Source of the DNA: Escherichia coli
GTDB lineage: Bacteria; Pseudomonadota; Gammaproteobacteria; Enterobacterales; Enterobacteriaceae
Assembly (NCBI RefSeq): GCF_003334335.1
Contig: NZ_QOWQ01000004.1
Strand: one strand, 5' to 3'
Length of the DNA stretch: 64,000 nucleotides
Shown here: piece after piece, positions 22,931-23,743 of the stretch
Layout: every line of letters begins with the position of its first letter
Position numbering within the stretch: position 1 is the first letter of the stretch
Translations under genes and position numbers: made by a program
The notes under the pieces: generated by a model
The model's input: the letters and a program-made list of their open reading frames with translations, nothing else
What the model was told of the DNA's origin: nothing
Databases searched by the model: none

Positions 22931-23743
22931 CTACACCAGTTCCAGCATCGTTACTTCCGGGCGGCAGTTCAGACGCAAACCATACAAACTGCCCACGCCA
23001 CGGGTTGTGTAGATGTGTCTTTCGCCAAAGGCATTTAATCCGGCGACGTAACGTTTATCTTCGACAGGGGCAAAAGGTTCACCAACCAACGGTACGCGCA
23101 GTTGCCCGCCGTGAGTATGGCCGCACAGCATCAGATCCCAGGGTTCATCACGCATGACTTCTTTGCTGTCGGGATTATGCGCCAGCACCAGTCTTGGCAG
23201 ATTGGCTTCGCTGGCGGGAGGCGGTTTGCATTGTCCGGCCCATAAGTCACCAGTGCCTACCAGTTCGAATTGCCTGTTCGGCGTGGCGATCACCGTAGCC
23301 TGGTTAAACAACACCGTGATGCCCGCTGATTTCAACGTCTCGCCAATTAAGTGATTTTTTTCTGTACCAACAGGGCGATCGTGGTTGCCGAAGCAGGCAA
23401 ACGTCGGCGCACATTCGGCAAGGGGGGAGAGTACGTCACTAAACGCCGAAAAATTCAGCGACATATCAAATAATACGTAATCGCCGCCCAGTAATATCAA
23501 ATCGGGCTTTTGTTCTATGCCAAGAGCAATCGCGTCAGAAATCAGGCTTAAAGGAACAAAACGAGAGTAATGGAGATCGGCCAGAAAAAGAATTTTGAAT
23601 GGTGCTGCGTTGTCTTTAAAAAAGGCGAGGCGGTGACGGATTAATTCAAACCAGCCTGGCTCACAGTAATGCATATAACCGAAACCTGAGCTCGTGGCTA
23701 TCGTCGCGGCAGTAGCCTGCAAAAATCGGCGGCGTGAAATCAT
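22931..23743 (-). CDS. yaeI: Calcineurin-like metallophosphoesterase YaeI with twin-arginine-type signal peptide
   Basis: 270-aa ORF; SRRRFLQATAA at the N-terminus; GDxxD...GNHD...GHTH metallophosphatase motifs. Confidence 0.88.
   Translation of the reverse strand: MISRRRFLQATAATIATSSGFGYMHYCEPGWFELIRHRLAFFKDNAAPFKILFLADLHYSRFVPLSLISDAIALGIEQKPDLILLGGDYVLFDMSLNFSAFSDVLSPLAECAPTFACFGNHDRPVGTEKNHLIGETLKSAGITVLFNQATVIATPNRQFELVGTGDLWAGQCKPPPASEANLPRLVLAHNPDSKEVMRDEPWDLMLCGHTHGGQLRVPLVGEPFAPVEDKRYVAGLNAFGERHIYTTRGVGSLYGLRLNCRPEVTMLELV

Follow-up and report, generated by a model that had tools for sequence, protein, structure and literature searches.

A metallophosphoesterase with a predicted twin-arginine signal encoded by yaeI of Escherichia coli

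The open reading frame at 22931..23743 (minus strand) of the window, the 64-kb stretch of DNA analysed here, is the already annotated E. coli gene yaeI, 'phosphodiesterase YaeI'. Taken as a whole, its features are best explained if the product belongs to the YaeI/YkuE/LpxG subfamily of binuclear metallophosphoesterases and is directed to the Tat translocase, a reading that we consider likely. This combination of Tat targeting and a metallophosphoesterase domain is not a new prediction for YaeI, as it is present in the genome annotation and in the Tat literature, and confirming it therefore adds little.

Gene identity and catalytic domain

The gene has an ATG start, with no in-frame start further upstream in the open reading frame listing, and comprises 270 codons followed by a TAG stop at 22931-22933. 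The strand is minus; the original prediction gave none. The product starts MISRRRFLQATAATIATSSGFGYMHYCEPGW, and the N-terminal string that was quoted when the frame was first described, SRRRFLQATAATIATSSGF, corresponds exactly to residues 3-21, confirming the frame at this position. The DNA is 100% identical to that of yaeI of E. coli K-12 MG1655 (b0164), with which it shares, without differences, the neighbours cdaR, yaeH, dapD and glnD. The NCBIfam equivalog model NF008460 ('phosphodiesterase YaeI') covers residues 1-270 at 531.3 bits, far above its cut-off of 188.

All five metal-ligand motifs of the metallophosphoesterases are intact in YaeI (minus strand throughout), and their conservation across 59 aligned homologues is complete or at least 90%. 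Invariant columns include motif I, D56-L-H58 (23570..23578); motif II, G87-D88, which carries the bridging aspartate (23480..23485); motif III, G119-N120-H121-D122 (23378..23389); and motif IV, H189 (23177..23179), inside a conserved H-N-P-D at residues 189-192. Motif V, identified in the homologue alignment, is G208-H209-T210-H211 (23111..23122) and is followed by an invariant G-G-Q. The protein matches Pfam Metallophos (PF00149) with an E value of 7e-13, and its AlphaFold (AF2) model (mean pLDDT of 94.9, pTM of 0.91) has the β-sandwich metallophosphoesterase fold. With every metal ligand present and the predicted fold in agreement, the assignment to the metallophosphoesterases made in the original prediction is well supported.

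The best Foldseek matches to the model are all metallophosphoesterases (GpdQ, Mre11, Rv0805 and 5'-nucleotidases). GpdQ, Rv0805, Mre11 and UshA/CD73 share the fold and the binuclear-site motifs with YaeI (Foldseek E values of 3e-6 to 2e-4), but with TM-scores of only about 0.45-0.48 and identities of 12-18%. We considered solved structures as a clue to the substrate and rejected them, as generic metallophosphoesterases at a TM-score of about 0.47 do not tell substrates apart. A search of solved structures with the single YaeI sequence gave no sequence-level match, and the family profile gave only weak matches to Mre11 and SbcD. The gene name reportedly derives from the general enzyme screen of Kuznetsova and colleagues in 2005, in which YaeI is said to have shown phosphodiesterase activity on bis-pNPP; the database name of one homologue, 'phosphodiesterase with model substrate bis-pNPP', echoes that screen. 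The 'unknown physiological role' of the original prediction is correct.

The twin-arginine signal

Residues 1-22 (23678..23743, minus strand) form a Tat-type signal region, as judged by signal hidden Markov models (HMMs), hydropathy and conservation. An n-region of three residues (MIS) precedes the twin-arginine motif and the h-region ATAATIATSSGFG, which is uncharged and rich in hydroxyl residues and glycine. The canonical Tat motif is S/T-R-R-x-F-L-K, and S3-R4-R5-R6-F7-L8-Q9 of YaeI matches six of its seven positions, with the lysine replaced by glutamine. Across the six frames of the window, the 160 stop-to-stop frames with 100 amino acids or more contain a single match to the pattern [ST]RRxF[LIV], at the codons for S3 to L8 of YaeI (23720..23737, minus strand). 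From amino acid frequencies, we would expect about 0.2 such motifs to arise by chance within the first 30 residues of all proteins of the E. coli proteome; on this estimate, the motif at the N terminus of YaeI is more than chance.

R4 and R5 are invariant in all 59 aligned homologues, which are 44-92% identical to YaeI. F7 and L8 (phenylalanine at +2 and leucine at +3) are found in 52 of the 59, as is serine or threonine at -1. The conservation claim rests on this aligned set. Homologues without the arginine pair in a separate set have truncated N termini, and the motif was judged by eye to be present in most of 147 further proteins (50%-identity representatives, 35-50% identical to YaeI), for which an automated count is unreliable because a too-strict D-x-H anchor expression sent sequences bearing the pair to the truncated class. 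When E. coli alleles are compared, yaeI has changed fastest in the signal region (72% nucleotide identity in its 90-bp block), and RR-x-F-L is kept despite this rapid change.

The uncharged stretch after the arginine pair is 21 residues long, exceeding the minimum of about 13 residues for a Tat signal. Its best 12-residue Kyte–Doolittle mean is 0.99, compared with 1.35-2.05 in a set of ten Tat signals and 2.0-2.6 in a set of six Sec signals. Judged by hydropathy, the h-region is not hydrophobic enough to be a Sec signal or a membrane helix; it falls below even typical Tat signals, so the signal could be an inefficient one. The HMMs give scores close to their limits: TIGR01409 reaches 16.5 bits, just under its curated cut-off of 16.7, and Pfam TAT_signal (PF10518) reaches 17.5 bits (E value of 0.0039). 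PGAP labels an N-terminal fragment of yaeI severed by IS1 as a 'twin-arginine translocation signal domain-containing protein'. The n-region of only three residues counts against a Tat signal.

A precedent for such a signal is YkuE of Bacillus subtilis, a Tat-dependent metallophosphoesterase of the cell wall according to Monteferrante et al. 2012, as that work is cited in PMC5449189 and PMC6708511. YaeI has the YkuE-type architecture of a twin-arginine signal, a Gly/Ala-rich h-region, a G-Y-x-[R/H]-Y-x-E-P junction and a metallophosphoesterase domain. The homology is colinear and includes the signal and the junction motif: BLASTP aligns YaeI with P0268, a Bacillus YkuE-type protein, over 157 columns from the arginine pair onward at 29% identity (E value of 1e-10), the Bacillus sequence being a 194-amino-acid fragment. 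The identity is only about 29%, export is established for YkuE and predicted for YaeI, and the cell wall to which YkuE binds is that of a Gram-positive bacterium, whereas YaeI would sit in a Gram-negative periplasm. An alignment of the short E. coli and B. subtilis homologues with the twin-arginine motif boxed has been published (Tooke et al. 2017, PMC5449189), together with polytopic YkuE-like relatives of dual Sec/Tat dependence in which the motif precedes the Tat-dependent last helix. These polytopic proteins have the same catalytic domain as YaeI and an arginine pair directly before the last hydrophobic segment, but they carry three extra Sec-inserted helices at the N terminus, of which YaeI has none.

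The invariant arginine pair, the weakly hydrophobic uncharged h-region and the colinearity with the YkuE type uphold the original prediction that the N terminus resembles a twin-arginine signal, and by these sequence features the signal looks real. We think it unlikely that the signal is instead served by Sec, or by Sec together with Tat. Many E. coli twin-arginine signals were reportedly promiscuous in the reporter fusions of Tullman-Ercek and colleagues (2007), a study of E. coli Tat signals in which YaeI is said to have been among the 29 tested, and UshA and CpdB, other periplasmic metallophosphoesterases of E. coli, are Sec substrates; both points favour Sec. The gap in hydropathy from the Sec signals given above (0.99 against 2.0-2.6 for the best 12 residues) argues against it, as does the basic residue that 55 of 59 homologues have at position 25 (H25 in YaeI, arginine in most), which resembles a Sec-avoidance feature of the c-region. 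Full-text searches for direct literature on YaeI export found nothing relevant.

Final location, relatives and candidate substrates

No A-x-A signal-peptidase site occurs in the N terminus of YaeI, and the sole candidate site is G20-F-G22|Y23. Small residues occupy -1 and -3 before Y23 in 73% of homologues, which is weak evidence of cleavage because a Gly/Ala-rich segment would give much of this by chance. Directly after the h-region lies a conserved junction motif, Y-M-H-Y-C-E-P-G-W at residues 23-31 (23651..23677, minus strand), which has the form Y-x-[R/H]-x-x-E-P-x-W and is present in membrane-anchored and LpxG-like relatives as well.

Because it lacks an A-x-A site, the YaeI signal may stay in place as a membrane tether, and 'exported to the periplasm' in the original prediction may describe a protein tethered to the inner membrane on its outer face instead of a soluble one. 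In this variant of the main explanation, which differs in the final location, the N terminus would be an uncleaved, Tat-inserted signal anchor, and YaeI would be monotopic in the inner membrane, its catalytic domain held against the surface that faces the periplasm. We regard this as a serious possibility, at somewhat below even odds. The nearly invariant Y23, E28, P and W31 abut the h-region, and the AF2 model gives one continuous helix from residue 4 to residue 30 that runs into the first strand (pLDDT of 84-92). In some family members the same E-P-x-W motif comes after a strongly hydrophobic helix at the N terminus, and the four-helix polytopic forms keep the helix preceded by the arginine pair in the membrane (PMC5449189). 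The same paper, however, refers to the proteins of E. coli and B. subtilis as 'shorter, soluble variants' and to the YkuE signal as cleavable. The small residues at -1 and -3 are compatible with signal peptidase I, and the insertion free energy of the best 15 residues of the h-region sums to about +4.8 kcal/mol, which would make a poor stable anchor.

We propose that the catalytic domain of YaeI would fold and take up two metal ions in the cytoplasm. TatBC would recognize S-R-R-R-F-L and the weakly hydrophobic h-region, and the folded protein would cross via TatA, as the signal features, their conservation and the YkuE precedent suggest. YaeI would end on the periplasmic side of the inner membrane, either cleaved free near G22|Y23 or, about equally likely, tethered by its uncleaved N-terminal helix, and would there hydrolyse phosphodiester or pyrophosphate bonds. 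Kinship with LpxG points to a membrane-proximal candidate substrate, possibly a lipid-linked phosphodiester or pyrophosphate; periplasmic nucleotides are alternative candidates.

Chlamydia LpxG, a UDP-2,3-diacylglucosamine pyrophosphatase of lipid A synthesis (PMC4807358), belongs to the same metallophosphoesterase subfamily and is the nearest characterized relative of YaeI. The LpxG model (NCBIfam NF033458) matches YaeI in two partial stretches (E value of 3.7e-35), at 121.8 bits against a cut-off of 350. P0243, an LpxG-like protein, is 32% identical to YaeI across nearly all of the catalytic domain, with the E-P junction and G-H-T-H-G-G-Q in common, but has an insertion of about 45 residues after G-N-H-D that YaeI lacks. 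LpxG also has a hydrophobic segment ahead of its domain; its architecture of a plain N-terminal transmembrane helix and a domain of about 320 amino acids differs from the 270 amino acids and twin-arginine signal of YaeI. This difference predicts opposite sides of the membrane for the two proteins, and the cytoplasmic substrate of LpxG counts against Tat targeting of YaeI.

Were the arginine pair incidental, YaeI could, like LpxG, remain on the cytoplasmic side of the membrane and serve lipid A synthesis as a back-up pyrophosphatase for UDP-2,3-diacylglucosamine. The LpxG model match and the 32% identity of the LpxG-like protein to YaeI over 289 columns speak for such a role, which we nevertheless consider very improbable. 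The match falls far short of the model cut-off, YaeI lacks the insertion and has a twin-arginine signal where the LpxG-like protein has none, R-R-x-F-L does not vary within the clade as an incidental motif would be expected to, and 62% of E. coli genomes lack yaeI. Furthermore, lpxH is essential in K-12, which carries yaeI, so YaeI does not replace LpxH in vivo. In a further reading, which we rate as unlikely, YaeI would be a periplasm-facing counterpart of LpxG. Held at or close to the periplasmic surface of the inner membrane, it would break a pyrophosphate or phosphodiester bond in a lipid-linked substrate, for example in lipid A species, undecaprenyl-linked species or the head group of a phospholipid.

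AMUC_1901 of Akkermansia, a secreted metallophosphoesterase of 285 amino acids with reported phospholipid hydrolysis in preliminary biochemistry (PMC12808494), may belong to the YaeI family; a protein of Akkermansia glycaniphila is match 39 to YaeI in AFDB, at 35% identity. Given its preliminary biochemistry, AMUC_1901 carries no weight in the argument here. Gene neighbourhood was rejected as a clue to function, as it is not conserved in Verrucomicrobiota, Eisenbacteria and other groups. In two verrucomicrobial lineages, a small basic protein precedes the yaeI homologue; it looks DNA-binding and is silent on the substrate.

Expression, distribution and selection

The intrinsic terminator of dapD (23755..23785, minus strand) lies directly upstream of yaeI. 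It has an 8-bp stem with seven G-C pairs, a 5-nucleotide loop and the tail ATTTTTTTGC, and its T-run ends 13 nucleotides before the yaeI ATG, which leaves no room after the terminator for a promoter of the gene's own. No σ70 promoter was found between dapD and yaeI, the only match in the region being at the start of dapD. The gene has been listed among those of the rpoE regulon (PMC5105897). The best σE candidate in the 1 kb upstream, a match at only 9 of 12 positions, was rejected; the window holds 72 matches as good as this one, placing it at chance level, and the regulon entry may be a slip for another yae gene. An Rfam scan of 21000-25000 found no RNA family. The Shine–Dalgarno match is weak and, together with the strong terminator and the absence of a detected promoter, suggests that YaeI may be scarce. 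The gene is dispensable and is probably expressed weakly, by read-through from dapD.

A yaeI-specific segment of 842 bp (22920..23761) is present in 2,084 of 5,426 complete E. coli genomes (38%). In the other complete genomes, its position is occupied by a segment of about 130 bp that is unrelated and unannotated; yaeI is missing from 3,339 of the 5,426 (62%).

This patchy distribution, the terminator with no promoter detected, an IS1 insertion inside yaeI in one genome and a dN of 0.061, much higher than in the neighbours (0.005 for yaeH and 0 for dapD), would all fit a decaying, effectively silent remnant without current function. We give that reading little credence. A full-length frame is kept in 2,079 genomes, divergent alleles retain every catalytic residue and the twin-arginine motif, and the order dapD-yaeI-yaeH is kept in another genus, Superficieibacter. 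The dN/dS of 0.12 indicates purifying selection and suggests that yaeI is functional where it is present.

YaeI is one of few K-12 proteins with a Tat-type signal and a substrate still to be found. That substrate, once found, would complete the list of Tat deliveries to the E. coli envelope, and might bring to light an activity in the periplasm akin to that of LpxG, the lipid A enzyme. The presence/absence polymorphism amounts to a natural yaeI knockout in most strains, which is useful for the design of experiments; with the terminator directly upstream, expression from the native locus is probably low. If YaeI were a periplasm-facing counterpart of LpxG, the presence or absence of the gene would lead to strain differences in envelope chemistry and phage susceptibility, with which the recovery of yaeI insertions in a T7 screen (PMC7414163) would agree.

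The yaeI gene and its catalytic domain

The yaeI reading frame (22931–23743, minus strand) runs from an ATG at 23743 to a TAG at 22931–22933 and encodes 270 residues. The ORF listing contains no in-frame start upstream of this ATG, and the product begins with MISRRRFLQATAATIATSSGFGYMHYCEPGW, residues 3–21 of which had been quoted as its N-terminus; both the frame and this N-terminus are confirmed, the strand being the sole omission of the original prediction. The gene matches yaeI of E. coli K-12 MG1655, annotated there as 'phosphodiesterase YaeI', at every nucleotide (100% identity), and the neighbours in order are cdaR (+), yaeH (−), yaeI (−), dapD (−) and glnD (−).

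Residues 49–212 match Pfam Metallophos (E = 7e-13), and against the NCBIfam equivalog NF008460 ('phosphodiesterase YaeI') the protein reaches 531 bits, where 188 would suffice. We aligned 59 homologues with identities of 44–92%. Residues D56, H58, D88, N120, H121, H189 and H211 are invariant and H209 is kept in at least 90% of the sequences; all metal-ligand positions of a binuclear site are present in YaeI. An AlphaFold2 model based on this alignment (mean pLDDT, 94.9; pTM, 0.91) has a helix at residues 4–30, after which strands and helices alternate as is typical of metallophosphoesterases. A sequence search found no solved structures within reach of YaeI, and the family profile matched only Mre11 and SbcD among solved structures, both weakly. 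The top Foldseek matches are the generic metallophosphoesterases GpdQ, Mre11, CD73/UshA and Rv0805 (TM of about 0.45–0.48), and near neighbours in AFDB50 are all named YaeI, YkuE or metallophosphoesterase. The intact motifs, predicted fold and family matches support the assignment as a metallophosphoesterase. The name 'phosphodiesterase' reportedly originates from bis-pNPP phosphodiesterase activity seen in a general enzyme screen by Kuznetsova et al. in 2005.

The predicted twin-arginine signal and its possible fate

The segment S3-R4-R5-R6-F7-L8-Q9 agrees with S/T-R-R-x-F-L-K at six of seven positions, and a six-frame search of the window, covering 160 stop-to-stop frames of 100 amino acids or more, finds the pattern [ST]RRxF[LIV] only once, at the YaeI N-terminus. 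R4 and R5 do not vary in any of the 59 homologues, F7 and L8 each persist in 52, and position 3 is Ser or Thr in 52; over the 13–15 residues after the motif, Gly, Ala, Leu, Ser and Thr replace one another freely. Full-length homologues without the arginine pair in the first search have visibly truncated N-termini. When two E. coli alleles are compared, no part of yaeI has diverged more than the block coding for the signal (72% nucleotide identity), and yet R-R-R-F-L is kept. This conservation of the motif is the strongest evidence for a Tat signal.

Profile matches are borderline, with Pfam TAT_signal at 17.5 bits (E = 0.0039) and TIGR01409 at 16.5 bits against a curated cut-off of 16.7. The best 12-residue window of the uncharged stretch F7–C27 (21 residues) has a mean Kyte–Doolittle value of 0.99, against 1.35–2.05 for ten E. 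coli Tat signals and 2.0–2.6 for six Sec signals, and its best 15-residue window has a summed Hessa insertion energy of +4.8 kcal/mol; the comparison is only indicative and suggests a segment too polar for a Sec signal or Sec-inserted helix and at the low end for Tat. In E. coli strain 1506 (locus L014:996–1693), an IS1 element (IS1X2) splits yaeI and cuts off a 57-codon N-terminal fragment, which the NCBI pipeline (PGAP) names 'twin-arginine translocation signal domain-containing protein'.

A metallophosphoesterase family related to Bacillus subtilis YkuE has been described by Tooke et al. (PMC5449189) and includes four-helix relatives whose last helix is Tat-dependent and is preceded by the twin-arginine motif; YkuE is cited there as Tat-dependent after Monteferrante et al. 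2012. Bacillus YkuE-type sequences were fetched for comparison, and the best match, an unnamed 194-residue fragment (P0268), aligns with YaeI from the motif onward (29% identity over 157 columns; E = 1e-10), pairing ISRRRFLQA...GFGYMHYCEP of YaeI with MSRRQFLKG...GYGYARYLEP. This homology, the invariant arginines, the uniqueness of the motif and the weak hydrophobicity bear out the predicted twin-arginine-like N-terminus.

Several features are unlike a textbook cleavable Tat signal, and retention of YaeI by an uncleaved signal anchor must therefore be taken seriously as an alternative final location. The n-region is only three residues long, the signal region has no A-x-A cleavage site, residues 4–30 form a single unbroken helix in the model and, in the homologue alignment, the nearly invariant junction Y23-x-[R/H]25-x-x-E28-P29-x-W31 directly follows the hydrophobic region. 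Against such an anchor, cleavage may be possible at G20-F-G22|Y23, where the residues at −1 and −3 are small in 73% of homologues, although this is weak evidence in a Gly- and Ala-rich segment. At position 25, 55 of the 59 homologues have a basic residue (Arg, His or Lys), which resembles the 'Sec-avoidance' charge of a c-region.

Relationship to LpxG

The second-best NCBIfam model for YaeI is LpxG, the Chlamydia UDP-2,3-diacylglucosamine pyrophosphatase (E = 3.7e-35); at 121.8 bits, far under the cut-off of 350, we rejected the identification of YaeI as LpxG. In agreement, lpxH is essential in K-12 although yaeI is present. An LpxG-like protein among the 50%-identity representatives (P0243; 306 bits) shares 32% identity with YaeI between the E-P junction and the C-terminus, but lacks the twin-arginine motif and has an insertion of about 45 residues after G-N-H-D that is absent from YaeI. 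Some other relatives have a strongly hydrophobic helix in place of the twin-arginine signal, yet score as YaeI. Together, these similarities make LpxG and YaeI sister lineages of one subfamily that differ in N-terminal targeting. The 'lipid A biosynthesis' label given to yaeI in PMC7414163 is most likely an electronic inference from similarity to LpxG; the yaeI insertions recovered in the T7 screen of that study are no more than a weak lead.

Expression and distribution of yaeI

A strong intrinsic dapD terminator (23755–23785, minus strand; hairpin 23785..23765, with an 8-bp stem of seven G-C pairs, followed by ATTTTTTTGC) adjoins yaeI. Only 13 nt separate the end of its T-run from the ATG, and this interval, AGGGATGAGCG, contains no more than a weak Shine–Dalgarno match. 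A promoter scan found no sigma-70 promoter for yaeI, and the 1 kb upstream (23744–24700) holds no sigma-E candidate above chance level. Transcription therefore probably depends on dapD read-through or an unrecognized promoter inside dapD, and expression is likely to be low. PMC5105897 lists yaeI in the known rpoE regulon, perhaps in mistake for another yae gene. The region has no match in Rfam.

The yaeI coding sequence is present in 2,084 of 5,426 complete E. coli genomes, including K-12 and BL21, whereas the flanking genes occur in 5,425. In O157:H7 and UTI89, the place of the 842-bp yaeI segment (22920–23761) is taken by about 130 bp of unrelated sequence lying between yaeH and the hairpin of the dapD terminator (L001:821–949 and L002:742–867). 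This alternative is single-copy, unannotated and found in 3,339 of the 5,426 genomes; the two states are complementary and jointly cover essentially all of them. The T-run of the dapD terminator (23755–23785, minus strand) falls within the yaeI-specific segment, and the same hairpin is followed by GATTTTTTT in yaeI-positive and GATTGCTTTCTGG in yaeI-negative genomes, a difference that may make the two alleles unequally efficient at terminating dapD. In the short allele (L001:900–985, plus strand; O157:H7 ATCC 43894), a strong Shine–Dalgarno-like run, AAGGGGGGAGGAAGA, directly precedes the ATG of an unannotated ORF of about 23 codons that runs antisense into the hairpin and is conserved in UTI89; it could encode a small protein or be due to chance.

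Superficieibacter electus has the same dapD-yaeI-yaeH order (65% identity), which makes yaeI a long-standing occupant of this locus whose absence from most E. coli reflects loss or replacement. Its orthologous group is enriched in phylogroup A (PMC5422975), and it is not in the 25-member TatP list of one ExPEC strain. Where present, yaeI is under purifying selection (dN/dS of 0.12 between K-12 and a divergent allele) and evolves much faster than yaeH (0.007) or dapD (0). In E. coli GPEC60-33-648 (L003:202–2435), yaeH, yaeI and dapD are unusually diverged from K-12 (dS of 0.66, 0.50 and 0.20; nucleotide identity of 91%, 87% and 96%), which suggests import from a divergent Escherichia lineage. 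Outside a few Enterobacteriaceae, the nearest homologues (44–59% identity) include Verrucomicrobiota-named proteins and many unnamed metagenomic sequences, with 222 clusters at E < 1e-30; these distant organisms have no conserved gene neighbourhood and offer no clue to substrate. In two verrucomicrobial lineages (L006:4458–4916 and L007:4461–4913), a highly basic, conserved protein about 150 amino acids long, with two similar halves and no Pfam match, is encoded about 85 nt upstream of the yaeI homologue on the same strand and looks like a DNA-binding protein.

The interpretation of YaeI in the original prediction is supported but already known, repeating what annotated genomes and published work on Tat contain. 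That yaeI is present in some genomes and absent from others, and that its start adjoins a terminator, is useful to note in passing rather than a new kind of discovery. We infer Tat dependence, as we do any cleavage, the metal identity and the substrate. In the best-supported reading, YaeI would be a binuclear metallophosphodiesterase that folds and is loaded with metal in the cytoplasm, is recognized by the Tat system through S-R-R-R-F-L and acts, free or tethered, on the periplasmic side of the inner membrane.
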